A stretch of DNA of 64,000 nucleotides, taken from Pseudomonas phage sp. 30-2. This document shows positions 6,015-24,679 of this stretch, piece by piece. The notes beneath the pieces were generated by a model, which searched no databases, was not told the DNA's origin, and saw nothing but the letters and a program-made list of their open reading frames with translations. The stretch's first letter is position 1, and each line of letters opens with the position of its first letter. The stretch lies in the sequence record LC727697.1. The stretch is one strand, 5' to 3'. The translations under genes were made by a program, and so were the position numbers.

Positions 6015-6101
6015 TTGACTTACTCCTTTTTATTATGCTAGAATTATAACATAATTTTATACAAAAGCAAGTTGTTTTCGTTTAATATATAGGAAAATAC
6101 A

Positions 6102-6332
6102 ATGTCTGAAGAGCAAAAAACATACAGTGAATCTTATATGCATGCAAAAACATATATTACAAACTGGAATTCTTGGGGAAACAACCAATTACAGTTTAAA
6201 AATATAAAAGATGCTATAGATGTAGTAGCAGAGCTCGGAATAAACAAATGTGTTAGGCTAGGAACCCGTGTAAGATTTAAAGAATATGATGAGTTGGTAT
6301 TTCAACGCATTAAATATTACATAGACGAGTAG
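6102..6332 (+). CDS. hypothetical protein (76 aa), plus strand
   Basis: AGGAAAA upstream of the ATG; followed by a clean terminator at 6391..6418; one of very few + genes. Confidence 0.45.
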   Translation: MSEEQKTYSESYMHAKTYITNWNSWGNNQLQFKNIKDAIDVVAELGINKCVRLGTRVRFKEYDELVFQRIKYYIDE

Positions 6333-6390
6333 CATTTTTAACACAATTTAGCGTATGATGTTTATGTGTTTGCGCTGTAACACAATTACT

Positions 6391-6418
6391 AAAAACCCCG
6401 CATTATGCGGGGTTTTTA
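6391..6418. terminator. bidirectional rho-independent terminator
   Basis: aaaaa-ccccgcat/atgcgggg-ttttt. Confidence 0.7.
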
Positions 6419-6489
6419 ATGCATTTAAAACACTACACACAACATTTATATAGTGTTATTTAATTTACCTTAAACAAATAATGCTCACA

Positions 6490-6516
6490 CAAAAAAAGGG
6501 GACCGAAGTCCCCTTA
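6490..6516 (-). terminator. rho-independent terminator downstream of clpP
   Basis: Stem aggggac/gtcccct, followed by a T7 run on the minus transcript. Confidence 0.7.
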
Positions 6517-6541
6517 AATTATCACCAGCTACAGTGAATAG

Positions 6542-7213
6542 TTACTTCAGGTCAGCTTTAGTGCGGAATACTTTGTCTGCCAACCCGAACTCAACTGCTT
6601 CTTGAGCAGAGAGGAATGTGTCGAATTTCATAATTTCGATAAATTCGTCGAACGTCTTGCCAGCAGTGTTATGATGAACATACAGCTCAGTGAGACGCTT
6701 GTTAATTTTAGATAGTTCTGCCGCATGGCGGACAGCATCTTCAATTCCTAACTCAACTTGTTGAGTTGTGCCGCCGAATCCCCCGAAGCCGCCGCTGGCT
6801 CGATGAATCATAGTGCGGGATTCGCTAGACACGTAACGATGCCCCGGAGTACCTGCTTGTGCTAGGAAAGACCCCATACTGCATGCTTGGCCCAACACGA
6901 TGGTATTAACGGGACACGAAATATATTCCATCGTGTTATAAATAGACAAACCAGCAGTAACGCTGCCGCCCGGAGAGTTAATATACATCGAAACGGGCTG
7001 TTCTGCCGATTCCGATTCGAGGAAAAGAAGCTGGGCAACAATTACGGATGCCATCTCGTCGCGAACTGGACCATTAAGAAAAACAATACGCTCTTTTAGA
7101 AGACGGGAATAAATATCCCAACTACGTTCGCCGTTGCCGTTATTTTCGACAACCATGGGGATCAAACCAGCTTCGGTAGGATATTGTCCTTGTGCTGTAT
7201 AATTGTAGCTCAT
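6542..7213 (-). CDS. clpP: ATP-dependent Clp protease proteolytic subunit ClpP
   Basis: Ser in [14 protein letters not shown], His in TMIHR, Asp in [15 protein letters not shown] give an intact Ser-His-Asp triad; GC-richer than flanks; there is a Gly-rich stretch GGFGGFGG next to the catalytic His. Confidence 0.9.
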
Positions 7214-7294
7214 ATAATAAGTCCTGTGTTTGTTTACGTTGTGTATATAATAGCAATGTTATTATACATCGTCTAGTTATAATTAAAGTTTAGT

Positions 7295-7681
7295 ATGATA
7301 AATATTGTTATGAAAATAAAAGAAATAATACTAGAAAATAAAACACATATAGAATTGTACGGTGCTGCAAACACTGACATTGATGCATTTTACAATCCAG
7401 AATTATATACTAATAATCAAAAACAGATTAAGAGATATGCAGTTTTGGGTATGACAGGTGACGGACCGACTCCTGTATTTAAAACTATTCCGAAAAATCC
7501 TGCCAACAAACCATTTAATAATCATCCAAAAAACGACGATACACAATCTCCTGGTTTTAGAGGTTTACAAATGGCAAAAGAACGTGCAGGATTACCGTTT
7601 GAGCCTTACCAAAAAATAGATCCTAGTTATAAACAATACAACGATATTCCATATGGTCCCGGAAATATTATGGATAGATAA
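7295..7681 (+). CDS. hypothetical protein (128 aa), plus strand
   Basis: Divergent from clpP; ends exactly at the bidirectional terminator at 7681..7706. Confidence 0.45.
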   Translation: MINIVMKIKEIILENKTHIELYGAANTDIDAFYNPELYTNNQKQIKRYAVLGMTGDGPTPVFKTIPKNPANKPFNNHPKNDDTQSPGFRGLQMAKERAGLPFEPYQKIDPSYKQYNDIPYGPGNIMDR

Positions 7682-7706
7682 AAATGCCCCGTACGGGGCA
7701 TTTTTA
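7681..7706. terminator. bidirectional rho-independent terminator
   Basis: aaaa-atgccccg-ta-cggggcat-ttttt between convergent genes. Confidence 0.75.
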
Positions 7707-8477
7707 TATCTTGTCGCTCAAATATTGTTCTAATGTATACGCTAAGTCTCTATTATATTCGGGTTTTGTTTCGTCTAATGCATCTAAATTATTTAATGCC
7801 CAAATCCAATAGTCCATTGGAACTTCATCTAAGGGTTTATCTTTATGTTTGCCAAATGGCATAGACGAAAGCATTAACGGCTTATTAGATATTTCTATAA
7901 GTTGATCTGCATACGGTATATCACTATCTAATTTATTCTTAGACTCTAAATCAGTTACTATTCGTTCCAATAATACACCGCACATATATGCATCTTCTCC
8001 TGCTCTATGCGCTACGAAATCGTCAGGAATATCTAACATTAATTTATATCTTAGATAAGATAATTTAAATTCTTCAAAAGTAGGATCGGTTTGATATGCA
8101 TATCGTGCAAGTTTTAAAGTACACAACCAATTAGTGCTAGATGCTATGTTATATCTCTCTAATACCTTTTTATCATACGGAGCATTGTGTGCAACTATTA
8201 GTTGGCAGCTTGTAATAGATTTGTATTGGTCGACTACATCGGCAAAAGTAGGTTTTCCTTCTACCATACGATCTGTTATGCCAGTTATAGAACTTATTTT
8301 AGGAGTTATTTGCGCATGATTAACTCTGGGTTTAAATAATTCACTACTATAAGTCCATTTGTTAGTATAAGACGCTATACCTAATTCTATTATTTCTGCT
8401 ACACGAGTATCTAAATGTGTAGTTTCTGTATCTAAAATTATAAGTGATTCTAGTAATTCCTTTAAACGTGGTGTCAT
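7704..8477 (-). CDS. dexA: DEDDh 3'-5' exonuclease (T4 DexA-like)
   Basis: Exo I ILDTETT, Exo II HNAPYDKKVL, Exo III HRAGEDAYM. Confidence 0.75.
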   Translation of the reverse strand: MTPRLKELLESLIILDTETTHLDTRVAEIIELGIASYTNKWTYSSELFKPRVNHAQITPKISSITGITDRMVEGKPTFADVVDQYKSITSCQLIVAHNAPYDKKVLERYNIASSTNWLCTLKLARYAYQTDPTFEEFKLSYLRYKLMLDIPDDFVAHRAGEDAYMCGVLLERIVTDLESKNKLDSDIPYADQLIEISNKPLMLSSMPFGKHKDKPLDEVPMDYWIWALNNLDALDETKPEYNRDLAYTLEQYLSDKI

Positions 8478-8545
8478 TATAATATTCTCTTGTTATTGTA
8501 TACATTATAACACCAAATATATAAAATATATACACAATTATGATA

Positions 8546-8575
8546 AAATAAAAGGGCTCAATGCCCTTTTATTTT
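8546..8575. terminator. rho-independent terminator
   Basis: aaaa-aagggc-tcaat-gccctt-tt-atttt just downstream of 8574..9083. Confidence 0.65.
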
Positions 8576-9083
8576 ACACAATTTGCACCATTTGAACCGA
8601 AGATACAGGGAATGGATTTGTACCATTCCAGGTCCATCCGTATACTGTATTACCTCCCAAATCTGAAGTATATTGTGTTGGTGCACCTAAATAACCAGTT
8701 ACAGAACTCCAGAAATTAGTTACTAAGTTGGTTGGTGCATTAGTTTGATCGACACCTATTCCTAGCACTTTATCGTAATCATTCCATGCAACTATAGTTA
8801 AATTGTATCCTTTAAAAACAATATTGTTTATTTTAGAACCTGTTGCAAACACTCTATATCCATATTGGGCATTCGGTGCAGCTTGCAACTGAGCAGAAGT
8901 TAATATATATTGTCCTGTTGGCATTCTACCATATGCGCCAGCAATACTTACTTGCCCTGTAGTTGCTGCACCACATAATATCCTCATTTCGGCAGCGTTT
9001 ACATCTAACCGAGCATCTTGTGGATTTCCTAATTCAACGTTAATTTGCTGTGTAGAAAGAGAACCCGAAGAAGGTAATGTCAT
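8574..9083 (-). CDS. hypothetical Gly/Thr/Asn/Gln-rich protein (169 aa)
   Basis: ORF with beta-rich, lectin- or fibre-like composition; GC-richer than flanks; sits among replication genes. Confidence 0.5.
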   Translation of the reverse strand: MTLPSSGSLSTQQINVELGNPQDARLDVNAAEMRILCGAATTGQVSIAGAYGRMPTGQYILTSAQLQAAPNAQYGYRVFATGSKINNIVFKGYNLTIVAWNDYDKVLGIGVDQTNAPTNLVTNFWSSVTGYLGAPTQYTSDLGGNTVYGWTWNGTNPFPVSSVQMVQIV

Positions 9084-9102
9084 AATAATATATCCTTTTT
9101 TA

Positions 9103-9264
9103 TTATTTATTACTCAACTCTAAGTCGCCTTTGCCTATTTCTATTTCGTTACCGTCTTCTAATTCTACTATAGCAATAGTTTTATTAGATATAAATTTTA
9201 TAACAATGCCGCTTGTCTCGCCAAATTCGGTTTTAATAATAACATCGTCGCCTACATTTATCAT
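9103..9264 (-). CDS. unlisted small ORF (53 aa) MINVGDDVIIKTEFGETSGIVIKF...
   Basis: Fills the 190-nt gap between 8574..9083 and the ligase; GGAT 8 nt upstream of the ATG; below the 60-aa cutoff of the ORF track; KOW/SH3-like small beta composition. Confidence 0.35.
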   Translation of the reverse strand: MINVGDDVIIKTEFGETSGIVIKFISNKTIAIVELEDGNEIEIGKGDLELSNK

Positions 9265-9273
9265 AAAATATCC

Positions 9274-10644
9274 TTATTTTATATCTTTGCTAGAATCTGC
9301 TTCAAATTTATCTGTTCTTATTTCTAAAAATCTAGGAAGAAAAAGAGAATCAACACCTATTCGGTCTACGCTTTTAATTCTTTCATTATACATAACACTC
9401 ACTATGCTATGTTTCCATTTATTTTCAAAATTTGCTGTTGCATCATCGCGTTCGCTGTCAGTTAAACCAGATATGTTGACTATTACCTTACCGTCTGAGC
9501 TTTCACATATTAATGATCCAACTTTATGTTCTGTTTTAGTACCTACTGTTCCGTAATTAAACCCAGTTACAATTAATTCGCATACTTTTTCTGATTTATA
9601 TTTTAATACTAACTTACTTCGTTTATTTTCCCATATACTATCAGGACATTTTACCATTATGCCTTCTTCGTTTCTAGATATTGCTTCGTCGAAGAAGATT
9701 TTTACTTCCTCTTTGCTATAAAGGAGACGAGTTTCTGCTAACCTAATTTGCCCTATATTTCCTAAAATAGTATTATATATTTTACTTTCTATATAATCAT
9801 CATCTACTTGCAATTTATGTATTGCATTTGATAAACTTTCGAATCTACTAGAATAGGGTGTAGTGCATTTATGTTCATTAAAACATCTAAGAGGAATACA
9901 ATCCCAAAGAATTGCTCTTACATTCTTTATTTCATTATCTGTAATGGTATCACTTTGTGCTTTACTTATGATACCGTTTCCTGTCCGTCTGGGGAGTATA
10001 TTATTATTAGAATCTACAACTATTAATTCGCCATCAAAAACCATATCTTCGTCGAAATATTTAATTAGCGAAACAAATGCGTCATCTAAAATATCTTTAA
10101 AATCGTATGATTTACCCGATCTTCCATAAAATGAAACAATTCCGGATTTACTAACATGAATATTAATTCTAGTTCCGTCTGATTTTATCTGAGAATAATA
10201 TGGTAACTTGCATTTACTAAGAAGATTTTCTGTTGCAGGTTCTGCTAGCAAGCACGGATATTTAGGTACTAGATCCTTCCATATTTTATTAACTGTAGCA
10301 TCTTGTATCCCTGCGCGTAAATCCTTTCTAATAATCCGGATAATTACATTTGCATCGTCATCTGTTAAACTAGAAAGAATATATGTTAGATGCAATATTG
10401 CGGCATTACCTGTTTTTATTCTATCAGATAGAACAGATAATTCGGTTAGTGCTTGTTCTAAGGTAAGAATAGTATCTGTTCGCGTGAATTCTGGTATTTT
10501 CTTTATATAAAAGTTAATAAATGGATTTAATGCCAAATGTATTACTTTTTTTAATGTGTCATTATCCTTGTTTCTTTCTAGAATAGCTAATTTAGTAGTT
10601 CGTTTAGTAGTATTTCCGATTTCGTCTAAAATTGTACGAATCAT
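9274..10644 (-). CDS. ATP-dependent DNA ligase (T4 gp30-like)
   Basis: Adenylation motif I QIKSDGTRI (KxDG); 456 aa. Confidence 0.85.
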   Translation of the reverse strand: MIRTILDEIGNTTKRTTKLAILERNKDNDTLKKVIHLALNPFINFYIKKIPEFTRTDTILTLEQALTELSVLSDRIKTGNAAILHLTYILSSLTDDDANVIIRIIRKDLRAGIQDATVNKIWKDLVPKYPCLLAEPATENLLSKCKLPYYSQIKSDGTRINIHVSKSGIVSFYGRSGKSYDFKDILDDAFVSLIKYFDEDMVFDGELIVVDSNNNILPRRTGNGIISKAQSDTITDNEIKNVRAILWDCIPLRCFNEHKCTTPYSSRFESLSNAIHKLQVDDDYIESKIYNTILGNIGQIRLAETRLLYSKEEVKIFFDEAISRNEEGIMVKCPDSIWENKRSKLVLKYKSEKVCELIVTGFNYGTVGTKTEHKVGSLICESSDGKVIVNISGLTDSERDDATANFENKWKHSIVSVMYNERIKSVDRIGVDSLFLPRFLEIRTDKFEADSSKDIK

Positions 10645-10671
10645 AATAGTGCCTTATTTAATTACTTAATA

Positions 10672-12402
10672 TTATGCAAGAACTTGTTCTACTTCTGCAC
10701 AATCTATTGTTTCTTTTTCCATTAACAAGTCTGCTACAAGTTTTAATTCAGCCTTTTTATCCGAAAGTAATGTTATGGCCTTATTGTACGCATCTTTTAC
10801 TAGAATTGCTGCATCTTGTTCTGCACTAGATTGCAAACTAGACAGGGTCGATGTCGCAACCGGTCCTATACTACCGAAACCACACGATGTAGTCATGTAT
10901 ACTGCAAGTTCGGTTGCTCTCTTTATATCTGAACTAGCGCCAGTGGATATTGCAGATTCACCGTATATGAGTTCTTCTGCTGCGCGGCCTGCCATTAACG
11001 TAACTAATTTATTCATGAGCTGCTCTTTGCTAACAGAAGGCTCTTCGTTAGGAAGAAATACAGTTACACCTAGTGCTAGACCTCGAGGAATGATAGATAC
11101 TTTATGCAAGTTATCATTAGATTTGTAAATTACACCCGATATTGCATGACCGGCTTCATGATATGCAGTACGAAGCAATTCTTCTTGGGTATATTTCTTT
11201 GTCGAATTTTCACCCATTAACACCTTATCTTTTGCTCGTTCTACATGCTCCTGGGTAATTACAGTTTGCCCAGACCTTACTGCATAGATTGCAGCCTCAT
11301 TGACTAGTTTAGCTAACTCAGCACCAGAGAATCCCGGAGTTCCTTTTGCTATTACTGAAAAATCTACATTGTCTTCAAATGTTTTTCCATTTGCATTTAT
11401 TTCTAAAATCTTCTGTCTAATCCCCACATCAGGTAAACTTAGTTGAACAATTCTGTCAAATCGTTTAGGACGAATAACAGCCGGGTCTAATATATCTAGT
11501 CTATTAGTAGCTGCAAGAATTGTAATACCATCGTTATCTTGCATTCCATCCATTTCTACTAATAACTGATTGAGTGTTTGGTCTGATCCATTAGATATTT
11601 TAGTAGAACGTTGCTGTGCAAGTGCATCAATTTCGTCTATGAAAATAATGCACGGCGCAGCTTCCTTTGCTTTTTTAAACATATCTGTTACACGGTTTGC
11701 ACCTACACCGACAAATGTATCATTAAACTCAGATCCAGCAACATAGAAAAAATTAACATTTGCCTCTTTTGCCATTGCCTTTGCTAAAAGTGTTTTCCCG
11801 ACGCCCGGACTGCCGTGCATTAGAATTCCACGAGGCACATCTATTCCCATGCTAGAATACTTAGTTCGATGAGCAATAAAATCAACTAACTCTTTTACTT
11901 CATTTATTTCGTGAGTATGGCCAGCTACATCGTTAAACGTTACTTCAATGTCTTTTGGTTCTATCTTGCGAAGTTTGGATTTACTTTTTGCATCTAATGA
12001 AGAACCAGGACCTATTCGCTTCAAAACGAATACCATTAAAATTAAAAATACTAACATTACTATAAGTCCAGACACCAAACTAGTAAGGAATGGACTAGGG
12101 GTAGAAGGTTCTTCGGTTACTACAGGAACACCTGCTTTAAGAAATGATTCTATTAATTTACTGGTATCTCCGGGGAATGTTACTTTTCTTCTGTCTGATG
12201 TATTAGTAACATACTGTAGTGTTTGTCCATCTTCTTTTAATTTAACACTAATTATTTTACCGCTCGTTGCGTCTGATAAAAAGGTGTTTATAGACACACT
12301 AGTCGGCTTGTAATTAATCGTTAACGCAAGTCCAGTTATGCATATTACAAGAAATAAAATAATAAATCTGTTATTTTTTATGAACTTAACAATATGTTGC
12401 AT
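10672..12402 (-). CDS. ftsH: FtsH-family membrane-anchored AAA+ zinc metalloprotease
   Basis: Two TM segments flank an ectodomain; Walker A GSPGVGKTLLAKA, Walker B IIFIDEIDAL, SRH ATNRLDILDPAVIRPKRFDR, M41 zinc site AYHEAGHAI. Confidence 0.9.
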   Translation of the reverse strand: MQHIVKFIKNNRFIILFLVICITGLALTINYKPTSVSINTFLSDATSGKIISVKLKEDGQTLQYVTNTSDRRKVTFPGDTSKLIESFLKAGVPVVTEEPSTPSPFLTSLVSGLIVMLVFLILMVFVLKRIGPGSSLDAKSKSKLRKIEPKDIEVTFNDVAGHTHEINEVKELVDFIAHRTKYSSMGIDVPRGILMHGSPGVGKTLLAKAMAKEANVNFFYVAGSEFNDTFVGVGANRVTDMFKKAKEAAPCIIFIDEIDALAQQRSTKISNGSDQTLNQLLVEMDGMQDNDGITILAATNRLDILDPAVIRPKRFDRIVQLSLPDVGIRQKILEINANGKTFEDNVDFSVIAKGTPGFSGAELAKLVNEAAIYAVRSGQTVITQEHVERAKDKVLMGENSTKKYTQEELLRTAYHEAGHAISGVIYKSNDNLHKVSIIPRGLALGVTVFLPNEEPSVSKEQLMNKLVTLMAGRAAEELIYGESAISTGASSDIKRATELAVYMTTSCGFGSIGPVATSTLSSLQSSAEQDAAILVKDAYNKAITLLSDKKAELKLVADLLMEKETIDCAEVEQVLA

Positions 12403-12442
12403 TATTTGATCCTATAAGGGGTTATGTGTGTAATATAACTGT

Positions 12443-13117
12443 TTACCGCTTATATGTAAATAGTTTTAAAAGTTTCTCTATAGACTCCATTATTGTATCG
12501 TACCAAAATAATACTACAGTTGTAGATAGTTTTTGCATAGATATATTTTCACATTTTTCGTTTATACAATCTTCTAATGTTTTGAGTATTACCACGCAAT
12601 TAATCACGTTTATTATCATACTGCCTATACAATAACTGACTGATAAATCTAATAGTATAGACATTACTATGGTCACAAGCAAAGTCATTGCTATAGAAAC
12701 ATTAAATGACGACGCGAAACTAAAAATGTTTTTTGACATAATTGCGTTTGCACAAAGAAACATATATAAAAACGAACTTATAGTAAACATAACTAAAACT
12801 AATAATGGCGCTACTTCCCCCAGTAACGCAGTTAATCCATTCCCTAATGTTATTCCTTGCCAAAATAATAAAAATACACTCCCTACAATAGACACATACA
12901 CATTTGTTCTAATACAATCTATAATAAACATTATAGCAAAATATGAAAATATACACACAAGTAAATTCATATTAAGAATTGGCATAGTTAATGCTAAATA
13001 TGCGCCGGCGGCTGCAAATATTCTAGTTAACATTAAAGTTGCAAATGTTCCTATTATAGATTTCTGTTCATTTGTTTTAAGTTCCAATTTTATCTCCTTA
13101 TAAAACAATCCCCGCAA
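12443..13117 (-). CDS. polytopic membrane protein (224 aa)
   Basis: Multiple hydrophobic segments; the overlapping + ORFs are treated as shadows. Confidence 0.45.
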   Translation of the reverse strand: MRGLFYKEIKLELKTNEQKSIIGTFATLMLTRIFAAAGAYLALTMPILNMNLLVCIFSYFAIMFIIDCIRTNVYVSIVGSVFLLFWQGITLGNGLTALLGEVAPLLVLVMFTISSFLYMFLCANAIMSKNIFSFASSFNVSIAMTLLVTIVMSILLDLSVSYCIGSMIINVINCVVILKTLEDCINEKCENISMQKLSTTVVLFWYDTIMESIEKLLKLFTYKR

Positions 13118-13134
13118 TTGCGGGGATTGTTTTT
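13102..13134. terminator. rho-independent terminator (long stem)
   Basis: aaaacaatccccgc-aatt-gcggggattgtttt. Confidence 0.7.
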
Positions 13135-13360
13135 ACTCTTCTTCGATTACCACAGGCATTTCTTTTTCTAATTTCTTTAACTGTGCTTCTGTTTGTTTAT
13201 CTAACATTTCTTCAGAAATATTAACATATGCCTTTTTAAAGTGTTCTAAACAATATGCTTTTCCTTCTATAGGTTTTGCTCCGCATTGTGTTTTAGAATT
13301 TCCTTTCCATTCACACTGTTTAGCTCTATATACTCCAAAAGTAAAATCAAATGTTTTCAT
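13133..13360 (-). CDS. small Cys-rich protein (75 aa), putative zinc ribbon
   Basis: CEWKGNSKTQCGAKPIEGKAYCLEH. Confidence 0.4.
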   Translation of the reverse strand: MKTFDFTFGVYRAKQCEWKGNSKTQCGAKPIEGKAYCLEHFKKAYVNISEEMLDKQTEAQLKKLEKEMPVVIEEE

Positions 13361-13427
13361 TTATAATCCTTATTACGTCATGCGTTTGTGTCGATCTTCA
13401 AGCTTCTTGTTGCAAAAGCTATCCATA

Positions 13428-13721
13428 TCAGTCTGTATATAAATCTTGTATTATTAATAATTGTTTATTATTTTGTAATGTTTCTTTTATTAAATGTTCT
13501 AAGTTAATAGTTTCCGAATAATTAGTATGCCAGTGATATGGTTTAGTTGGTTTAATTTGTTCACAAACATAAATTACATATTGGTCTATAGGTTGAGTTA
13601 TAGAATATGGTTTTATATTGCGTAAAATATCTTTATAAAATACCACACTAACTGTTACAGATACACCATTTCTTTTATTGATTACTGTGTAATCTTTTCC
13701 AATAGTGTGTATATCTATCAT
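13428..13721 (-). CDS. hypothetical protein (97 aa)
   Basis: ORF on coding strand. Confidence 0.4.
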   Translation of the reverse strand: MIDIHTIGKDYTVINKRNGVSVTVSVVFYKDILRNIKPYSITQPIDQYVIYVCEQIKPTKPYHWHTNYSETINLEHLIKETLQNNKQLLIIQDLYTD

Positions 13722-13730
13722 TTATTTGCA

Positions 13731-14015
13731 TTACCTGTCATGAAATAGAATTGTGTTACCCTTATAGGTAGATACGTATACTCCTAATAAATCTTTAAAC
13801 AATAACGAATTAGCCCAACACTCTGGACCTTCGCCCCACATAATAGCTGCATCAGCTTTTACATATTTATGAATTTGTTTTTTCGACAATACTTTAATAC
13901 CGTTTGGATTAAATCCTGCTTGCTTGGCAAATTCCTTTAATTCAAATGCCATGTGTTGTGCAGTTTCATAAGATAAAGAAAAGAGGCATTCATCCCAATG
14001 CTTTTTAGTTCTCAT
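13731..14015 (-). CDS. hypothetical protein (94 aa)
   Basis: ORF on coding strand. Confidence 0.4.
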   Translation of the reverse strand: MRTKKHWDECLFSLSYETAQHMAFELKEFAKQAGFNPNGIKVLSKKQIHKYVKADAAIMWGEGPECWANSLLFKDLLGVYVSTYKGNTILFHDR

Positions 14016-14034
14016 AAGTATTCACCGAAGTTAT

Positions 14035-14583
14035 TTATTGAGAATACATACCCTCCAGATATTCCCAATTAAATATATTCCATATATTCTCGTAGTATGA
14101 CTTCTTGTCTGCTTTATAATCGAGCATATATGCATGCTCCCAACAATCAATAAGTAAGAATATATCGTCTCTTACTTCGTGATTTGGGATTTCCTTTATT
14201 ACAAGGGTATTAGAAACATAAATCCATCCAGAACCATGAACATCCATACATGCAGATATAACCTCATTTTTAAATTTAGAAAATGAAGTAAATTTAGATT
14301 TTATATCTTTTAATAATATCCCGGAAGGAGAATATCTTTTTTGAGAATCAGTAAATTGACTAAAATAAATCCCATGCAAGTATGCACCTGCAAATGAAAA
14401 TTTATTACTAGGGTCTTTGTTTACTGAAGATATGTAATTAGAATATAGTGTTCCGTAATGTAGTTCTACTAAATCTTTAGAGAAAGTAGGACTAAGACTA
14501 CTTACGGAATACGGGATAGGAATTTTCTTTACGGACGATGCAGCTTCTGCAATAGATATGTATTTCTTTATGGAATCATTCAT
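14035..14583 (-). CDS. sod: Fe/Mn-family superoxide dismutase
   Basis: LHYG near the N-terminus, the AGAYLHGIYF His region, and the diagnostic DCWEHAYMLDY (DxWEHAYY) motif. Confidence 0.7.
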   Translation of the reverse strand: MNDSIKKYISIAEAASSVKKIPIPYSVSSLSPTFSKDLVELHYGTLYSNYISSVNKDPSNKFSFAGAYLHGIYFSQFTDSQKRYSPSGILLKDIKSKFTSFSKFKNEVISACMDVHGSGWIYVSNTLVIKEIPNHEVRDDIFLLIDCWEHAYMLDYKADKKSYYENIWNIFNWEYLEGMYSQ

Positions 14584-14657
14584 AATTCTTATATCCCTAT
14601 ATGCTTTATTTATTATAATAGGGAAGGGGGCAGGTGTCTACCCCCGTTTTTGCTGTA

Positions 14658-14993
14658 TTACGATTCTTCTACAGTTACTTTAAAATCAGGATAACCGTTG
14701 TTAATGGCAAGTTGAACAGATTTAGACTGTTTCGATTCTGCAATTTCTTTTGTATAGCTGCCTACAATCTTTGCGCCGCGTTCATGCACTTCCATCATTG
14801 TATTGTATGCGCTAGATGCATCGTAGTCATATATATATACTAACAATTGCATAACAAATTCCATAGTGGTTTTGTTATCGTTGTGAAAAACTACATTATA
14901 TTTCTTAGGTTGAAATACAGTAGACGAAGTTTCAACTTTATTAGCTACCTTTACAGTCATTTTTAAATCCCAAGTTGATCGTAATTGATACAC
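14658..14993 (-). CDS. clpS: ClpS-like adaptor
   Basis: YNVVFHNDNKTTMEFVMQLL ... MMEVHERGAKIVGSYTKEIAESK follows the ClpS core. Confidence 0.75.
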   Translation of the reverse strand: MYQLRSTWDLKMTVKVANKVETSSTVFQPKKYNVVFHNDNKTTMEFVMQLLVYIYDYDASSAYNTMMEVHERGAKIVGSYTKEIAESKQSKSVQLAINNGYPDFKVTVEES

Positions 14994-15035
14994 ATTATTA
15001 TATATGTTTAAACAGTGTCGTCAAGTTATATAGCA

Positions 15036-15068
15036 AAAATAAAAAGCTGGAATACCAGCTTTTTATTT
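15036..15068. terminator. rho-independent terminator after hsp20
   Basis: aaaagctgg-aata-ccagctttt flanked by A and T runs. Confidence 0.65.
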
Positions 15069-15075
15069 GTAAACA

Positions 15076-15507
15076 TTATTCTATATCAATTACTTTTCGT
15101 TGTGATTCTGCAGGACTCGGCGGTTGAATTTTTATTGTTAGAATGCCATTTTTCATACCGCACGAAGATATATTTATAAGATCGTCTACAAGCCTGAATT
15201 TGACAGAAAAATCTTTACTAGAAATACCTTTGTGTTCGTATTCTACTTCAGTTTTAAAAATTCGTTCCGGTTTTGTTTCTATTACTAACAGTCGTTCTCT
15301 GCTATCTACATAAACATCTAGCTCGGATTTATCATAACCGGCAAGAGCTAATTCAAGACAATAGCTACCGTCTGCATTCTTTATCAAATTATGGGGAGGA
15401 AACTTCTGGCTACTAAGTTCATTAGTAATAGTATTAAGTAAATCAGTTGCACCTAGTGCATATCTATAATTAGCTAGGTTAGATGACATTATAACATGTT
15501 TTTGCAT
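15076..15507 (-). CDS. small heat-shock protein (Hsp20/alpha-crystallin)
   Basis: About 140 aa with an alpha-crystallin core and a C-terminal GILTIKI motif. Confidence 0.7.
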   Translation of the reverse strand: MQKHVIMSSNLANYRYALGATDLLNTITNELSSQKFPPHNLIKNADGSYCLELALAGYDKSELDVYVDSRERLLVIETKPERIFKTEVEYEHKGISSKDFSVKFRLVDDLINISSCGMKNGILTIKIQPPSPAESQRKVIDIE

Positions 15508-15590
15508 TTTTAATCTCCTTTACGCAAGATATAGTGTGAGCCCAATAAGGCACTCGTTGTATAGTATTCCTCATGGAATACTAATGTTAT

Positions 15591-16061
15591 TTATCTTTTA
15601 AATGTTGACTTATACGTTTCATATATAGCAGAATTGTTTTCGTGTTCCCATATTTCTATACTATGGACCCAACATCTTCCGCCAGAATGTTTTTCTATAA
15701 TGGGATTTAAATAGTCAAACAGATGCTTACATGAACCTTCTATTCCGGGACCATGGCCTTTTTTAACATCCATTATATTTAATTTAACTAGACCTTCTTG
15801 TTCCATTTGTTTAAGGATATTTAACTTGGGATCATCAGATGCAACTAAAACATTATGATCCCATTGTTCTTCCAACCATTTCCTAAAATCTTTCAATCCA
15901 CCAAAATCTACTACCCACATTTTATCATCTAATGTAGTAGCAGAAAAAACAATCTTCACTGTTCTTCCATAGCCGTGTATTCTACTGCAATGACCTGTAT
16001 CTTTCCATTGACGATGGCCAGTGGAAATAGGTCCAAATCTCTTAGTTGAAAAATATGCCAT
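15591..16061 (-). CDS. QueD/6-pyruvoyl-tetrahydropterin synthase-like protein (divergent paralog)
   Basis: CSRIHGYGRTVKIVF resembles the PTPS CxxxHGH site but has HGY in place of HGH. Confidence 0.5.
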   Translation of the reverse strand: MAYFSTKRFGPISTGHRQWKDTGHCSRIHGYGRTVKIVFSATTLDDKMWVVDFGGLKDFRKWLEEQWDHNVLVASDDPKLNILKQMEQEGLVKLNIMDVKKGHGPGIEGSCKHLFDYLNPIIEKHSGGRCWVHSIEIWEHENNSAIYETYKSTFKR

Positions 16062-16062
16062 A

Positions 16063-16398
16063 TTAAATTATTAATCCGCAATAAATGCATTTTTCTGCAT
16101 CTGTATTTGTATGATAATTAGTATTGTGATACACAAACTTATGATTGCAATACCGACGGATATACTGCATAGTTTTATCTATACAGATTATACGTTGTTC
16201 AAGTCTACTGCATTCGGATATAGCATCTTTATACGATTGGAGCTGTTCTATATCCATTTTTATGCTGGAAATAAGTAAAGAATCTGCAGGATCTGCAGGG
16301 ATGTCAACTTTATCCAATTGCCGTAGGCTATAATAGAGTTTATTCCTACGATTTCTGCAAAACATAAGTTCATTATTTAAAATCCTGCAAAGGTCCAT
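16063..16398 (-). CDS. hypothetical protein with C-terminal Cys cluster
   Basis: CNHKF ... EKCIYCG. Confidence 0.4.
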   Translation of the reverse strand: MDLCRILNNELMFCRNRRNKLYYSLRQLDKVDIPADPADSLLISSIKMDIEQLQSYKDAISECSRLEQRIICIDKTMQYIRRYCNHKFVYHNTNYHTNTDAEKCIYCGLII

Positions 16399-16400
16399 TA

Positions 16401-16607
16401 TTATATTTTTTTCTTTTTCTGGCGTTGAATTGCTGCTTTTTTAGCTTTTGTCTTTTTTACAGAAGGCTTTTCATAGAATTCGCGTTCTCGAACTTCTTTT
16501 AATTTTCCTGAATTTTGAACCTTTTTAGTAAAAGTTCTAAGTGCTTGGTTAAAGTTATCGTGTCTTACTTCTACAGTAAGACCAGTAATTATATTAAATG
16601 TCTTCAT
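16401..16607 (-). CDS. rpsU: ribosomal protein bS21 homolog
   Basis: VEVRHDNFNQALRTFTKKVQNSGKLKEVREREFYEKPSVKKTKAKKAAIQRQ aligns with bacterial S21 (VRENEPFDVALRRFKR ... AEVRRREFYEKPT ... RKRAKA); start overlaps the clpX stop by 14 nt. Confidence 0.8.
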   Translation of the reverse strand: MKTFNIITGLTVEVRHDNFNQALRTFTKKVQNSGKLKEVREREFYEKPSVKKTKAKKAAIQRQKKKKI

Positions 16608-17820
16608 TTTGCCCTTTTATGAAATTATGTTTTCCTAGTTCGTGTATAATAATCTTGCTAAACCCTTCTCGTCTTATAGAAGGCAATCTATATGCTATAC
16701 TAGATAGTTCTTTTTCTAAAATAGTTCTTAAACCACGAGCGCCTGTTTTCCTATTAAACGCTGTAGTAGCAACAGATTTTATAAAATCTTCATCGAATTC
16801 TAATTCAATGTTATCTAATTTAAACATAGTTTGATATTGTTTAAGTATAGAACTTTTAGGCTCTACTAGAATTCGACGAAGCATAGTCTCTGTTACATCA
16901 TGAAACGCAATAAGAACAGGAAATCTCCCTACAAATTCTCTTATAAAACCGTATGTATACAAATCTTCCGGTTCTACATAGAATAAACTACCTTCTATGG
17001 GTTTACCAGCTTCTGAACCAAATCCCATTTGAGATTTAGTAGAACTAAGTCTTTTATTTATTACTGCATCCAGTCCTATAAATGCGCCGCCAACTATAAA
17101 CAAAACGTTAGTTGTGTCAAACATAATTTCCTGCCTAGGACTAAACATACTGTTAGAATTTAGTTCTAATTTAATCGTTGTTCCTTCTAACACCCGAAGT
17201 AAAGACTGTTGAACACCCTCGCCGGAAACATCAGATCCTGCAGAATTTGTTCCTTTTTTAGAACGCTTCTTATCTATTTCATCTATAAATACGATTCCAC
17301 GTTGCGCTAGTTCTATGTCACCATTTGCTTCTGCGATTAATCTAGTAAATATAGTCTCTACATGATCGCCGACATATCCTGCCTCTGTTAGCGAAGTAGA
17401 ATCTACAGAAACAAAAGGTATGTTTAACAATTTAGATATACTAGATATTAAAAATGTCTTACCGCTGCCTGAAGGTCCCAGTAGCATTATGTTAGATTTA
17501 GATAACTCTACATCATGTTCAGTAGTGTTATAGTTTACCCGTTTATAATGATTATACACTGCTAGACTTAGTAATTCTTTTGCGTGATCTTGCCCTACAA
17601 TGTCTTTATCTAGCAATTCCTTTAGTTCTTCAGGTGTGTATTTTATTTCTAATTTATTAGATTCCCGATCATTTGTTTCAGCAGTTTCTAAAAAATTGTT
17701 GCACTGAGTTACACACTGGTCACATATATATACATTTGATCCATATTTAGCAGGGCTACGAAACAACTTAGACACATCATCTTTGCCTTTATTGCAATAA
17801 GAGCATGTTTCTTTCGACAT
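16594..17820 (-). CDS. clpX: ClpX ATP-dependent unfoldase
   Basis: N-terminal C4 zinc finger (CSYCNK ... CDQC), Walker A LLGPSGSGKTFL, GYVG pore loop, Walker B IVFIDEIDK. Confidence 0.9.
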   Translation of the reverse strand: MSKETCSYCNKGKDDVSKLFRSPAKYGSNVYICDQCVTQCNNFLETAETNDRESNKLEIKYTPEELKELLDKDIVGQDHAKELLSLAVYNHYKRVNYNTTEHDVELSKSNIMLLGPSGSGKTFLISSISKLLNIPFVSVDSTSLTEAGYVGDHVETIFTRLIAEANGDIELAQRGIVFIDEIDKKRSKKGTNSAGSDVSGEGVQQSLLRVLEGTTIKLELNSNSMFSPRQEIMFDTTNVLFIVGGAFIGLDAVINKRLSSTKSQMGFGSEAGKPIEGSLFYVEPEDLYTYGFIREFVGRFPVLIAFHDVTETMLRRILVEPKSSILKQYQTMFKLDNIELEFDEDFIKSVATTAFNRKTGARGLRTILEKELSSIAYRLPSIRREGFSKIIIHELGKHNFIKGQNEDI

Positions 17821-17837
17821 TTATATCTACCTTTATA

Positions 17838-18356
17838 TTATGCAATATATGTTGCACAAGCTTTATCAGTTTCCCACCATTCTACTTTAGAAACAGTTAT
17901 ACCTTTTTGTTCTAAAATGCTTTCAGCATATTCCCAAATCCATTTAGCTAAATTTTCTGCAGTAGGAACAAAATCTACTATTACAAAACTATCTGCATGT
18001 TCCTTTTCGTGTTCTACTGTCTCTTCAGATGTATCGAATATTCCATAGTGCTCAAAACTTATAGTAGAATATTTAGATGCATTGGTTATCTTACTAAAAT
18101 TAGGATCGTTTGCATCTATAATAAACTTATGGTCGATTACGTCATCTATAAATTTTTTAAGAAAACCTAAATGCTTAAAATCAGTTACCATACCGTTTAC
18201 TAAAGAAGTTCCAGTTAAATGAATAACTATTTTACCTGTATGTCCGTGTAAATGCCTGCATTTGCATTTGGTGTCTTCAACTAAATCTGCATCTAAGTGT
18301 TGATTATGGACTCTGTGAGCATATGCAAAACTGAAACTTTTATTAATCTGCCACAA
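17838..18356 (-). CDS. queD: QueD / 6-carboxytetrahydropterin (6-pyruvoyl-tetrahydropterin) synthase
   Basis: AYAHRVHN ... CRHLHGHTGKIVIHL: the canonical CxxxHGH zinc site. Confidence 0.8.
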   Translation of the reverse strand: MWQINKSFSFAYAHRVHNQHLDADLVEDTKCKCRHLHGHTGKIVIHLTGTSLVNGMVTDFKHLGFLKKFIDDVIDHKFIIDANDPNFSKITNASKYSTISFEHYGIFDTSEETVEHEKEHADSFVIVDFVPTAENLAKWIWEYAESILEQKGITVSKVEWWETDKACATYIA

Positions 18357-18423
18357 TTTTATATTCCTTATTAATATGCTATGTGTAACTACTATGGATA
18401 GGTCCTATCCATAGTAGTTTTTG

Positions 18424-19113
18424 TTATTTTACAAGAGACATAAATTCTGCACGGGTGGCAGGATCGTTGCTAAATGCACCACTTAATTTAGAAGTTATCG
18501 TACTCGAACTTGTATCTTCTACACCCCTAGATTCCACACACAGATGCCTTCCGTTAATTAAAACAGCAACATCGTCTGTTTCCAGAATATACCGTAATGC
18601 ATGAAATATTTGCAATGTGAGTCGTTCTTGAACTTGAGGTCTCTTGCAGAAAAATTCTGCTACTCTATTTAATTTAGAGAGACCTATTACTTTATTTTTA
18701 GGAATATAAGCAACTGATATTCCGCCTCGACCGGAAGATGATCCAGAAATTATTGGTAAAATATGATGTTCGCACTGAGAATATAAATCTATATCTTTTA
18801 CTAAGACCATTTCATTTGCATTAAATTTATTTTCAATAGTGGTGCATTTAGGAAATGCCTCATAATCCAAGCCATAAAATATCTCAGATACATACATTTT
18901 TGCTACTCGACGAGGCGTTTCTGCAAGACTATCGTCGGAAAGATCCAACGCAAGTGCATTCATAATTTCAACAAAATGAGATTCAATTTTATCTATCCGC
19001 TCTTTAACGTTTAGAGTTTGCTCTTGCATAGGAGTTTCTACTCCTTGTTGGATTAAATATTGCTGTACTTTTTTGCCTAGTTCGGCATCAGTTTTAGTTT
19101 TGTTTAACGACAC
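18424..19113 (-). CDS. folE: GTP cyclohydrolase I
   Basis: CEHHILPI motif and the C-terminal KRPQVQERLT signature. Confidence 0.85.
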   Translation of the reverse strand: MSLNKTKTDAELGKKVQQYLIQQGVETPMQEQTLNVKERIDKIESHFVEIMNALALDLSDDSLAETPRRVAKMYVSEIFYGLDYEAFPKCTTIENKFNANEMVLVKDIDLYSQCEHHILPIISGSSSGRGGISVAYIPKNKVIGLSKLNRVAEFFCKRPQVQERLTLQIFHALRYILETDDVAVLINGRHLCVESRGVEDTSSSTITSKLSGAFSNDPATRAEFMSLVK

Positions 19114-19261
19114 GATTTCCTCCTGAAATCATTTTAGTTTGATAAGCAAAGTGCCGCCTGCACTTTGCTTTAATTATTTGTATAGTATACTATACGTTTT
19201 CTTCCGTGTCAACCCAATGACAAAGATATTTAGATACGTTTTAACATCATTAACTACATAG

Positions 19262-24626: not shown

Positions 24627-24679
24627 GTATGTTATCCTTATATTGTGTGTAATAAAGGGAACAATGTTCCCTTTTTATA

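Follow-up and report, generated by a model that had tools for sequence, protein, structure and literature searches.

A proposed protein-turnover and stress gene block in Pseudomonas phage sp. 30-2 and its jumbo-phage relatives

The Agrobacterium jumbo phage Atu_ph07 encodes described Clp, Hsp20 and DnaJ sets (ClpX, ClpA, ClpP, ClpS, Hsp20 and DnaJ), which its authors proposed to aid host survival of infection stress or to regulate replication (PMC6102473), and comparable sets are found in a review of jumbo phages (PMC7824862). The Atu_ph07 genes are scattered (gp2, gp292, gp676 and gp708), whereas Pseudomonas phage sp. 30-2 carries most of them in one conserved block. When compared to the window, i.e. 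the whole 64,000-nucleotide stretch analysed here (LC727697.1), the proteins of Atu_ph07 and the Sinorhizobium phage Phosso were 55–57% (ClpP), 43–44% (ClpX) and about 34% (ClpS) identical; among the matches listed in searches of phage collections, none from these two phages was to the FtsH or the Fe/Mn superoxide dismutase (SOD) of the window. A phage FtsH was published as an oddity in 2019 (PMC6892783).

The ClpXP and ClpAPS machines of E. coli and P. aeruginosa have the same domain architecture and catalytic residues as the phage versions, sharing the ClpX zinc domain, GYVG, the (I/M)GF docking loop, the Ser-His-Asp triad and the ClpS pocket. They differ in that bacterial clpP and clpX lie in one operon, whereas the phage genes are 9 kb apart, in that phage ClpX has no RKH loop, and in the divergence of all the phage proteins (42–58% identity).

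A preliminary description had reported genes for ClpP, FtsH, SOD, ClpS, Hsp20 and ClpX with intact catalytic motifs. Pfam matches placed all six on the minus strand at the coordinates given. All of the genes are full length, and the catalytic and metal-binding motifs checked were intact without exception, as read from alignments to solved structures and from residue positions. The features of the region are:

6496..6515, minus strand: predicted terminator-like hairpin, AAGGGGACTTCGGTCCCCTT then TTTTT, just 3' of clpP (consensus scan)
6542..7213, minus strand: clpP, ClpP serine protease subunit, 223 aa (Pfam CLP_protease, E 8e-60)
7704..8477, minus strand: RNase T/DnaQ-like exonuclease, not a proteostasis gene (Pfam RNase_T, E 3e-17)
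9274..10644, minus strand: ATP-dependent DNA ligase, in the conserved order (Pfam DNA_ligase_A_M)
10672..12402, minus strand: ftsH, membrane AAA+ zinc metalloprotease, 576 aa (Pfam FtsH_ext, AAA, AAA_lid_3 and Peptidase_M41)
12443..13087, minus strand: BI-1/YccA-like polytopic membrane protein, 214 aa (Pfam Bax1-I, E 2.4e-4, below cut-off)
13102..13133, unstranded: perfect palindromic hairpin with a 14-bp stem, AAAACAATCCCCGC AATT GCGGGGATTGTTTT (terminator-like scan)
13731..14015, minus strand: small conserved ORF, 94 aa, adjoining sod (weak Pfam Tox-MPTase3, E 3.5e-4)
14035..14583, minus strand: sod, Fe/Mn superoxide dismutase, short form, 182 aa (Pfam Sod_Fe_C, E 1e-21, and weak Sod_Fe_N)
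14658..14960, minus strand: clpS, N-degron adaptor, 100 aa (Pfam ClpS, E 1e-21)
14997..15024, minus strand: sigma-70-like promoter match between hsp20 and clpS, TTGACG-16-TATAAT (consensus scan, 11/12 positions)
15076..15507, minus strand: hsp20, alpha-crystallin small heat-shock protein, 143 aa (Pfam HSP20, E 3e-10)
15591..16061, minus strand: PTPS/QueD-like paralog (Pfam PTPS, E 9e-22)
16401..16607, minus strand: ribosomal protein S21 homolog (Pfam Ribosomal_S21, E 1e-15)
16594..17820, minus strand: clpX, AAA+ unfoldase, 408 aa (Pfam zf-C4_ClpX, AAA_2 and ClpB_D2-small)
17838..19113, minus strand: queD-like PTPS (17838-18356) and folE, GTP cyclohydrolase I (18424-19113) (Pfam)

Over positions 6000-19500, the window shares 98.8–99.2% nucleotide identity with ten jumbo phages of Pseudomonas aeruginosa already published, the Wroclawvirus genomes compared including PA5oct (MK797984), MIJ3 (LR588166), Paride (OR805295), Callisto, PAC2 and sp. 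30-3. At the protein level, ClpP (in phage sp. 30-3, PA5oct and others), SOD and Hsp20 are 100%, ClpX 99.8–100%, ClpS 99.1% and FtsH 99.0–99.8% identical. There is no substantive difference from the published genomes, and the window represents one more isolate or copy of the same phage group; by its sequence, the stretch is assigned to a Wroclawvirus (PA5oct/Paride group) jumbo phage infecting P. aeruginosa. The host is thus not a marine low-GC bacterium, as had been suggested. That the region is phage-borne is borne out by its presence in ten independently isolated phage genomes, and this recurrence at near-identity ruled out host contamination or a chimera.

For each of the six genes, one or more GenBank records already give a name. 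Names used in Wroclawvirus are ClpP, ClpX, ClpS, heat shock protein, FtsH, "FtsH-interacting integral membrane protein" and S21, while sodB is named for MIJ3 and Callisto and "hypothetical" in other records. The literature searched on Wroclawvirus treats only FtsH and TilS and does not discuss the ensemble. Also absent from the literature searched were the conserved FolE-to-ClpP order in uncultured aquatic phage contigs, the conserved cassette of FtsH and a BI-1/YccA-like membrane protein, a phage ClpX without the RKH loop, and the phage ClpA just outside the window with DnaJ, a Cpn10-like protein and oligopeptidase A. The ensemble had been called unusual; its members do occur together, but given the GenBank annotations, the Atu_ph07 analogue and a gene order common to uncultured phages it is not a one-off.

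The order FolE-QueD-ClpX-S21-Hsp20-ClpS-SOD-ligase-exonuclease-ClpP, of which the queD-like PTPS and folE form the upstream end, recurs in uncultured aquatic phage contigs of 120–385 kb. It is common to 207-kb and 331-kb marine contigs, with proteins 30–68% identical, and is also found in IMG/VR contigs of 119–385 kb; the IMG/VR loci L104-L106 and L120 have the order FolE-PTPS-ClpX-S21-Hsp20-ClpS. Judged from these comparisons, most of the block is an inherited gene order common to many uncultured aquatic jumbo phages, and a shared order at 30–68% protein identity counts for long-term selection on the block.

Phage ClpX scored 456 bits on the NCBIfam ClpX equivalog (cut-off 359) and contains the zinc-binding cysteines C6, C9, C33 and C36, GPSGSGKT (115-122), the GYVG pore loop (148-151), Walker B FIDEIDK and GARGLR. 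As the ClpP-docking tripeptide is kept (MGF, 265-267), pairing with ClpP is plausible. In E. coli, the RKH loop is needed for ssrA-tag recognition. A multiple alignment of phage ClpX showed this loop to be absent here and deleted in most relatives, and phage and host ClpX therefore probably differ in substrate choice. The mechanical ORF of clpS runs to 14993, but the true start is probably 14960, the 100-aa length agreeing with the PA5oct annotation and marine homologs. An alignment to the E. coli ClpS structure showed the N-degron pocket to be conserved (N-D-x-x-T-x-M and H). Where ClpS has been characterised in bacteria, it serves ClpA/ClpC as an adaptor, and not ClpX. About 6-8 kb past the left edge of the window lies the gene for a ClpA (PA5oct gp298) that combines Clp_N and two AAA modules with an IGF loop, and the predicted machines are thus ClpXP plus ClpAPS; the ClpXP machine proposed earlier stands as a plausible pairing, but the account was incomplete. 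DnaJ (gp297), a Cpn10-like protein (gp290) and oligopeptidase A (gp188; PA5oct numbering) are encoded by the same genome.

The ClpP triad (S112/H137/D198) was read from an alignment to solved structures (E 5e-59), in which, compared to bacterial ClpP, the catalytic His region of the phage protein is followed by an insertion of 10 residues. The GC richness noted for clpP was confirmed: with 46.7% GC and 44% GC3 it is the highest of the 57 window ORFs (means 33.9% and 23.7%; z = 3.6 and 4.2, respectively). Separate acquisition as a lone insertion, on the other hand, is unsupported, since the position of clpP and its exonuclease/ligase neighbourhood are shared with 43%-GC marine relatives. The anomaly is common to clpP and clpA, and no close donor was found for either (best matches 68% for ClpP, 54% for ClpA).

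Aligned to E. coli FtsH structures, the phage FtsH is 42% identical over its entire length, and it scored 548 bits on NCBIfam FtsH_fam (cut-off 600). It comprises two N-terminal hydrophobic helices, GSPGVGKT (197-204), the pore residue F230, SRH, HEAGH (415-419) and AAEE (474-477), and is short, 576 aa against about 640 aa for E. coli-type FtsH, the bacterial C-terminal tail being absent. E. coli FtsH is paired with YccA, a BI-1 family modulator/substrate, and the phage likewise pairs FtsH with a polytopic protein weakly similar to Bax1-I, although below the Pfam cut-off. The gene for this protein has a TTG start and an AAGGAG Shine-Dalgarno, and the palindromic hairpin at 13102..13133 stands immediately upstream of the pair. 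Its sole homolog among 1.8 billion representatives, P0242 (28% identical), matches Bax1-I at E 7e-8, and its gene directly precedes that of a 575-aa FtsH with 51% identity to the phage sp. 30-2 enzyme. The pair is thus kept in a second lineage and forms a conserved two-gene cassette; in bacteria, yccA and ftsH are not known to be neighbours. The BI-1/YccA-like protein, with seven predicted helices, probably modulates phage FtsH. Transcription of FtsH has been reported throughout infection (PMC7318152).

The SOD ligands H42, H70, D146 and H150 are invariant in four phage homologs, and the N-terminal hairpin is shortened relative to the P. gingivalis structure. The family is found in at least 469 IMG/VR contigs. 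Viral SODs have precedents, e.g. in Megavirus chilensis, and SOD is present in virion proteomes (PMC9405923); the Megavirus enzyme is of the Cu,Zn type, whereas the phage SOD is a short Fe/Mn type from a phage-specific subfamily. Hsp20 has a C-terminal I-D-I motif and IbpB/IbpA-like NCBIfam matches. Its family comprises 492 phage records, including T4-like cyanophages and pelagiphages (30–36% identity), and is widespread in marine myophages, but the cyanophage genes are not reported inside a ClpX-S21-Hsp20-ClpS-SOD array, unlike that of phage sp. 30-2.

Taken together, we give somewhat better than even credence to a conserved protein-turnover/stress block encoding working enzymes made during infection and serving quality control and amino-acid recycling. 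ESI-MS/MS notes in the PA5oct record establish the existence of the ClpP, FtsH and SOD products. As to docking partners, substrates and benefit to the phage, we infer that ClpP would form a proteolytic barrel capped by ClpX through its zinc-binding domain and M-G-F docking loop, or by ClpA with its N-domain and I-G-F loop, with ClpS passing N-degron substrates to ClpA. FtsH, with the BI-1/YccA-like partner as its probable modulator, would handle membrane proteins, Hsp20 would hold unfolding proteins and the SOD would remove superoxide; together with DnaJ, the Cpn10-like protein and oligopeptidase A, this would allow quality control and amino-acid recycling independent of continued host gene expression. 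The phage may, as the preliminary description suggested, rewire host proteolysis. Late in infection, phage transcripts make up 93% of cell mRNA (PMC7318152), and host supply of these factors should therefore fall. Since ClpXP, ClpAPS and FtsH are already present in the host, a simple argument from supply is not compelling by itself. To our knowledge, most jumbo phages do without these genes, which also counts against the proposed role, as do the below-cut-off BI-1 assignment and its uninformative, low-confidence AF2 model. If the role is true, it would pay off when infections are long or the host is starved or not growing. Of most interest as a lead is the ability of this phage group to replicate in dormant cells, relatives of phage sp. 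30-2 being reported to do so in deep-dormant cells (PMC10761892; PMC12814882).

A less likely but serious alternative is targeted takeover or counter-defence, in which the proteases mainly destroy particular host or competitor proteins (e.g. defence proteins, regulators like RpoS or antitoxin-controlled systems), with ClpX and ClpS redirecting specificity. The missing RKH loop points to changed substrate recognition and the phage supplies its own adaptor, ClpS; the jumbo-phage review proposes that the patchily distributed ClpP and ClpS act against host proteins (PMC7824862), and Paride requires RpoS and (p)ppGpp signalling of its host to grow on dormant cells (PMC10761892). However, the co-occurring Hsp20, SOD, DnaJ, Cpn10-like protein and oligopeptidase A better fit maintenance, and conservation of the block in phages whose mostly unknown hosts differ widely argues against host-specific targets.

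A role in virion assembly, in which ClpP would serve as head-maturation protease, and AAA+ proteins together with chaperones would fold, translocate or process structural proteins of the very large virion, is improbable. Several GenBank records do term ClpP a "head maturation protease", mass spectrometry detected ClpP, FtsH and SOD in virion preparations, and phage ClpA and ClpX have been suggested to help virion assembly (PMC7824862). Yet ClpP scored 236 bits on the NCBIfam cellular ClpP subfamily model (cut-off 249) against 89 on the ClpP-like head-maturation model (cut-off 120), in PA5oct another gene, adjoining the portal and capsid genes, encodes a prohead scaffold/protease (gp152), the PA5oct authors class some of the detected proteins as "virion-unrelated enzymes", and the block sits among nucleotide-metabolism genes, away from structural genes. 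An artefact or dead cargo (host contamination, chimeric assembly or decaying captured genes without function), at which only the atypical clpP GC might hint, is effectively refuted by the ten independent isolates, the phage-like low GC of all other genes in the window, the mere 42–58% identity to bacterial homologs, the intact active sites, the detected proteins, the gene order kept by distant phages and the phage FtsH proteins forming long branches outside the bacterial cluster in a tree.

It also counts against the preferred quality-control reading that the block may be a group of neighbouring middle genes and not one functional unit, as the six genes are interspersed with the DNA ligase, exonuclease, S21 and queuosine-type genes and are split by promoter-like and terminator-like sites in the consensus scan. 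The total of sigma-70-like matches was not above shuffled expectation, and the candidate at 14997..15024 is thus a lead only; PA5oct relies on host RNA polymerase (PMC7318152). Related phages, though, are aquatic or marine. In one marine contig (L014), the syntenic exonuclease and ligase are each 36% identical to those of the window, and a 110-aa ORF at the matching post-SOD position is 45% identical to the 94-aa ORF. The PTPS/QueD-like paralog at 15591..16061 does not lie between S21 and Hsp20 in L014 or a second marine contig (L018), and in both the S21 gene overlaps the clpX 3' end by 14 nt, exactly as in phage sp. 30-2.

Comparison of window positions 6000-19500 with GenBank returned ten phage genomes with 98.8-99.2% nucleotide identity over the full length, among them Pseudomonas phages sp. 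30-3, PAC2, Deifobo, Cassandra, PA5oct, MIJ3, Paride, Ettore and Callisto. The matching phages have genomes of ~285-288 kb, belong to the genus Wroclawvirus (family Arenbergviridae) and infect P. aeruginosa. The host is thus a high-GC gammaproteobacterium, and the marine low-GC bacteria named as hosts in the preliminary description proved to be wrong; the GC mismatch between phage and host has been remarked on for MIJ3 (PMC6892783). By coordinate mapping, the window corresponds to approximately 187.6-123.6 kb of PA5oct in reverse orientation.

Six open reading frames, each matching its Pfam family, were found at the positions where a phage-borne set of proteostasis genes had been described:

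6542-7213, minus strand: ClpP (Pfam match)
10672-12402, minus strand: FtsH (Pfam match)
14035-14583, minus strand: Fe/Mn SOD (Pfam match)
14658-14993, minus strand: ClpS, true start probably 14960 (Pfam match)
15076-15507, minus strand: Hsp20 (Pfam match)
16594-17820, minus strand: ClpX (Pfam match)

Alignments to solved structures and inspection of residue positions revealed zero catalytic substitutions, so that the motifs are intact as claimed; the original observation is confirmed, and its interpretation is partly supported. In ClpP (peptidase family S14), the triad S112, H137 and D198 aligned to that of solved ClpPs, and the protein scored 202 bits on the Pfam model (cut-off 20) and just below the cut-off of 249 on the NCBIfam ClpP subfamily model. 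FtsH (peptidase family M41) comprises FtsH_ext at residues 15-98, hydrophobic stretches at ~13-28 and ~107-127 (two N-terminal helices), a Walker A motif (197-204), pore residue F230, the SRH motif TNRLDILD...RPKRFDR, HEAGH (415-419) and the downstream glutamates in AAEE (474-477). It shares 42% identity with E. coli FtsH in a full-length alignment and scored 548 bits against an NCBIfam cut-off of 600. The scores of FtsH and ClpP just under the NCBIfam cut-offs fit divergent but genuine family members. ClpX has a C4 zinc-binding domain (C6, C9, C33, C36; Pfam zf-C4_ClpX, E 2e-10) and a single AAA+ module with Walker A GPSGSGKT, Walker B FIDEIDK, pore-1 GYVG and sensor-2 GARGLR, and exceeded the NCBIfam equivalog cut-off (456 bits, cut-off 359). 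At the position aligned with the IGF of the ClpP-docking loop it carries M265-G-F267, where relatives have IGF, IGI or IGL. The pocket residues N27, D28, T31, M33 and H59 of the 100-aa ClpS correspond to E. coli N34, D35, T38, M40 and H66, and E. coli D36 is replaced by N.

The SOD ligands H42, H70, D146 and H150 aligned to those of PDB 1ues and 1qnn and are invariant in four phage homologs. The Sod_Fe_N match is limited to residues 22-56 (26.9 bits, cut-off 27), the N-terminal hairpin is ~14 residues shorter than in solved SODs, a shortening common to the phage subfamily, and the protein fell under the NCBIfam equivalog cut-offs for SOD. Hsp20 scored 40.6 bits on the Pfam HSP20 model (cut-off 20.8) and ends in ...RKVIDIE with an I-x-I motif. 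Beside sod lies a small ORF of 94 aa (window 13731-14015, minus strand) with a weak Pfam match to the metallopeptidase toxin family Tox-MPTase3 (E 3.5e-4); it is 45% identical to a 110-aa ORF situated immediately downstream of SOD on the contig of a marine relative (L014 3457-3789). The alpha and beta subunits of a class Ia (aerobic, di-iron) ribonucleotide reductase are encoded ~9-13 kb from the SOD gene (window 23487-26965, minus strand), and it is conceivable that SOD protects oxygen-sensitive radical enzymes such as this one.

In E. coli ClpX, RKH loops help to recognise ssrA-tagged proteins and certain other substrates. When the phage ClpX was aligned with a proteobacterial ClpX structure, this loop, which is a proteobacterial feature and does not define the whole ClpX family, was missing from the window protein, which has S-M-F in its place. 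Five out of six phage ClpX homologs have lost the loop by deletion, and the docking tripeptide, the ATPase motifs and the zinc-binding domain are retained. Judged from these alignments, substrate selection by the phage ClpX probably differs from that of the host enzyme. In characterised bacterial systems, ClpS hands N-degron substrates to ClpA or ClpC and not to ClpX. A ClpA is encoded ~6-8 kb past the left edge of the window (PA5oct gp298, 739 aa), with Clp_N, two Walker A motifs and an IGF docking loop (791 bits on the NCBIfam ClpA model, cut-off 993); its gene is adjoined by that of a DnaJ (gp297), and a Cpn10-like gene (gp290) is also nearby. The phage thus has the parts for both ClpXP and ClpAPS. 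Outside the window, PA5oct encodes an oligopeptidase A homolog (gp188, 673 aa; PA5oct 113008-115029, L103 39509-41530 in the PA5oct locus used here) that is annotated and undiscussed in the searchable literature; such an enzyme would process peptides from ATP-dependent proteases. The predicted parts list would then comprise ClpXP, ClpAPS and an enzyme for the peptides that those proteases release.

Protein searches against 50,697 phage records were used to assess how rare the ensemble is. Among credible large phage genomes, FtsH was found beyond the genus only in the 274-kb Microcystis phage MaAM05, the remaining matches in phage records being short, host-like fragments. SOD was detected in Vibrio phage 2.275.O and, more weakly at 24-32% identity, in a few others, one of them a freshwater phage of 103 kb, ClpX in Atu_ph07, Phosso, Bacillus phage G and Lak phages, and ClpS in Atu_ph07 and Phosso. 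ClpP occurs in the latter two phages (55-57% identity) and, as weaker matches, in Salicola phage SCTP-2 and phage G, while Hsp20 is a member of a common cyanophage/pelagiphage family. The full combination is thus confined to Wroclawvirus among cultured phages, in contrast to uncultured metagenome phages, in which the gene order recurs.

The nearest ClpP relatives were hundreds of metagenome proteins of 205-206 aa (67-69% identity), one of which is located on a 207-kb contig (L014) as well as on Tara Oceans contigs. The 207-kb contig encodes, in order, ClpX, S21, Hsp20, ClpS, SOD, two small ORFs, DNA ligase, three ORFs, an RNase T-like exonuclease, a small opposite-strand ORF and ClpP, and past ClpP a metallophosphoesterase, RtcB, GroEL and NAD-salvage genes; the gene order of a 331-kb contig (L018) is identical. 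Between window and marine contig, protein identity is 68% for ClpP, 42% for ClpX and 31-38% for the others; the marine contigs have 43% GC. At least 469 viral contigs in IMG/VR matched a profile of the short phage SOD; of the 80 best loci, six had ClpS and five had ClpX, in the same order and on contigs of up to 385 kb, and 32 had a PTPS gene upstream, 3.5-4 kb from SOD. A ClpS profile gave 29 loci, several with the order FolE-PTPS-ClpX-S21-Hsp20-ClpS. The presence of this order in many large uncultured aquatic phages suggests an old, widespread protein-turnover trait of one jumbo-phage lineage, and a virus-encoded module of this kind is not a curiosity of a single isolate. Downstream of ClpP, both marine contigs (L014 13611-20621, L018 13583-20621) encode an RtcB RNA ligase, a full GroEL (Cpn60), a NadR-like cytidylyltransferase/NUDIX protein and NAMPT, which extend this neighbourhood by functions in RNA repair and NAD salvage and by a chaperonin. 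In a different large phage, represented by a 125-kb contig (L019 6738-19797), SOD, a UvrD helicase and ClpP are close together, and the contig also encodes the starvation-associated trio PrkA, DUF444 and SpoVR, a PTH2 peptidyl-tRNA hydrolase and a Band_7 protein.

Interleaved with the six genes in the window are those for an RNase T-like exonuclease, an ATP-dependent DNA ligase, two PTPS/QueD paralogs, FolE, S21 and several small ORFs. The S21 gene and the 3' end of clpX have exactly 14 nt in common (window 16594-16607), and the identical overlap is found in the two marine relatives (L014 1718-1731, L018 1927-1940) despite only ~40% protein identity, which suggests a conserved translational coupling of an unfoldase with a ribosomal protein. 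The block's only sizeable opposite-strand ORF (window 7295-7681, plus strand, 128 aa) lies between the exonuclease and clpP; its counterpart in the marine contigs (L014 9613-9897, minus strand) is 30% identical and has the same position and relative orientation, so it is probably a real gene. A scan for sigma-70 promoters gave 70 sites against 72.8 expected in shuffled sequence; since the sites are no commoner than this expectation, individual promoter calls are only leads.

Directly upstream of ftsH is a gene for a 214-aa polytopic membrane protein, with a TTG start and a good Shine-Dalgarno sequence, right after a perfect 14-bp hairpin. The protein is a candidate member of the BI-1/YccA family; its match to Pfam Bax1-I (PF01027) is weak (21.4 bits, E 2.4e-4, cut-off 34.1). 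It had no match in PDB, NCBIfam or PHROGs, and an exhaustive search of 1.8 billion representative proteins returned a single true homolog (P0242, 28% identity), which scored 32.9 bits on Bax1-I (E 7e-8) with nearly the whole profile covered. The gene of this homolog lies immediately upstream of one encoding a 575-aa FtsH with 51% identity to the window FtsH, and the pair is thus a conserved two-gene cassette, in agreement with the PA5oct GenBank label "FtsH-interacting integral membrane protein". An AF2 model of the membrane protein, built from a two-sequence alignment, has seven helices and a mean pLDDT of 44, too low for a fold search.

A 119-kb viral contig encodes a full FtsH (596 aa, M41 and AAA) 1.4 kb downstream of ClpS; FtsH thus also occurs beyond the PA5oct group, and within the same block. 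At the corresponding positions, the marine contigs L014 and L018 have neither FtsH nor the BI-1-like gene nor the second PTPS; these three genes were either inserted in some lineages or lost from others. A quick distance tree paired the window FtsH with the FtsH adjacent to P0242 and gave that of the 119-kb contig a separate long branch. All three sequences fell outside the tight gammaproteobacterial cluster (~44% identity, against 71% inside the cluster), which fits long residence in phage genomes. A single-protein FtsH pattern search of IMG/VR yielded only two contigs, both grouping with bacterial FtsH, and the closest FtsH match beyond Wroclawvirus (P0122) lies in a bacterial context (ExbB/ExbD/TonB and S20).

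As had been remarked, clpP is richer in GC than the phage backbone; its GC of 46.7% and GC3 of 44% rank top among the 57 ORFs of the window, which average 33.9% and 23.7%, respectively. Separate acquisition of the gene as a lone insertion, however, is not supported, since its position beside the exonuclease and ligase is common to relatives. In the marine contig of 43% GC, clpP has the same composition (GC 46.5%, GC3 44%), and an identity of only 68% at the protein and 65% at the nucleotide level led us to reject a recent transfer from the sampled marine relatives. A pattern scan covering one genome per species gave six scattered matches (53-71% identity) with no clear donor, and the names of the ClpP cluster offered no clue to one. 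Expression-linked codon bias was not supported either, the major capsid gene having a GC3 of only 30%. The clpA gene (gp298; PA5oct locus L016 10624-12843) is a similar outlier among ~148 PA5oct ORFs, with GC 45% and GC3 42% against genome averages of 33% and 24%; both ClpAP subunits thus share one compositional signature, unlike clpX, clpS and ftsH, which are fully AT-adapted. The nearest ClpA relatives are only 48-54% identical. One of them and the marine ClpP are both listed with a longest contig of 335 kb, which suggests that the marine ClpP-bearing relatives also encode ClpA. The signature may have arisen by replacement in situ from a relative of higher GC outside those sampled, or by selection acting on codon choice. 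The PA5oct gp335 "ATPase" gene (PA5oct locus L017 1079-2194) is more extreme than clpA, with a GC3 of 67%.

The gene list itself is already known, since the phage has been published and all six genes carry their names in one or more public records: PA5oct GenBank entries include ClpP, ClpX, ClpS, "heat shock protein", FtsH, the FtsH-interacting membrane protein and S21, and SOD is named sodB in the MIJ3 and Callisto records. FtsH (with TilS) was presented as new for phages by Imam et al. in 2019, who speculated on a role in keeping the host viable (PMC6892783), and Lood et al. reported ftsH transcription throughout infection in 2020 (PMC7318152). Similarly, Atu_ph07 has seven Clp-family genes and DnaJ, proposed to help the host survive infection stress (PMC6102473), and its Hsp20 was noted in a comparative review of 224 jumbo phages that covers ClpP, ClpS, ClpA, ClpX and Hsp20 (PMC7824862). 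In the searchable literature, including the Paride paper, the Callisto paper and a 2026 review, the ensemble of the PA5oct group is undiscussed, and a marine jumbo-phage survey (PMC9123017) and a 2026 jumbo-phage review (PMC13282480) do not mention the block genes. Also absent from that literature are the aquatic gene order, the BI-1-like/FtsH cassette, ClpA as the predicted ClpS partner, the loss of the RKH loop and the joint clpP/clpA GC anomaly, which together represent a modest added value and a testable hypothesis.

Going by gene content, the block may constitute a virus-encoded module for protein turnover and stress, and a role in maintenance and recycling is the reading towards which we lean, with guarded confidence. 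Targeted takeover or counter-defence by the predicted phage proteases appears unlikely, if still worth weighing, and the two readings are not mutually exclusive. Quite improbable is a role in virion assembly. According to GenBank notes, MS peptides of ClpP, FtsH, SOD, ligase, QueD and FolE were obtained from virion preparations; ClpP as the prohead protease was rejected on model scores (236 bits for ClpP against 89 bits for head maturation, the latter with a cut-off of 120) and on the presence of a separate prohead protease in the phage. An artefact has next to no probability, host contamination or a chimera being rejected by the ten matching genomes and an FtsH outside the bacterial cluster.

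Direct replication on deep-dormant P. aeruginosa has been found for no phages other than Paride and its close relatives, which are of the same genus as the window. Such replication requires host RpoS and (p)ppGpp signalling, and the authors suggested that the phage mobilises stored resources (PMC10761892). A paper of January 2026 describes the mechanism of replication in dormant cells as still little known (PMC12814882), and no paper in the searchable literature links the block genes to it. We put forward, as a long shot, that the conserved ClpXP/ClpAPS/FtsH/Hsp20/SOD block together with oligopeptidase A enables Paride-type replication in deep-dormant, antibiotic-tolerant P. aeruginosa. Phage AAA+ proteases would break down aggregates and the stored or hibernating proteins of the host and thereby release amino acids, translation would be re-awakened with the help of the phage S21, and the stationary-phase proteome, oxidised and prone to aggregation, would be dealt with by Hsp20 and SOD. 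If this is true, the same module in many uncultured jumbo phages of aquatic origin would represent adaptation to natural hosts that are starved and grow slowly. PA5oct/Paride-type phages are therapy candidates, and the block offers a short, concrete list of knock-out candidates for dormant-cell replication.

FolE and the two PTPS/QueD paralogs (window 17838-19113 and 15591-16061), with a 7-carboxy-7-deazaguanine synthase elsewhere in the genome (PA5oct gp322, L016 44442-45314), point to a putative 7-deazaguanine (queuosine-type) pathway, and PA5oct features in a preprint on hypermodified phage genomes (PMC12191111). Finally, several large "Hef-like" homing endonuclease genes (window 48007-49842, minus strand; PA5oct gp155, gp196, gp211, gp312 and gp339) interrupt regions of structural and replication genes, and one homing endonuclease splits the DNA polymerase (gp311/gp313) according to the MIJ3 paper (PMC6892783).
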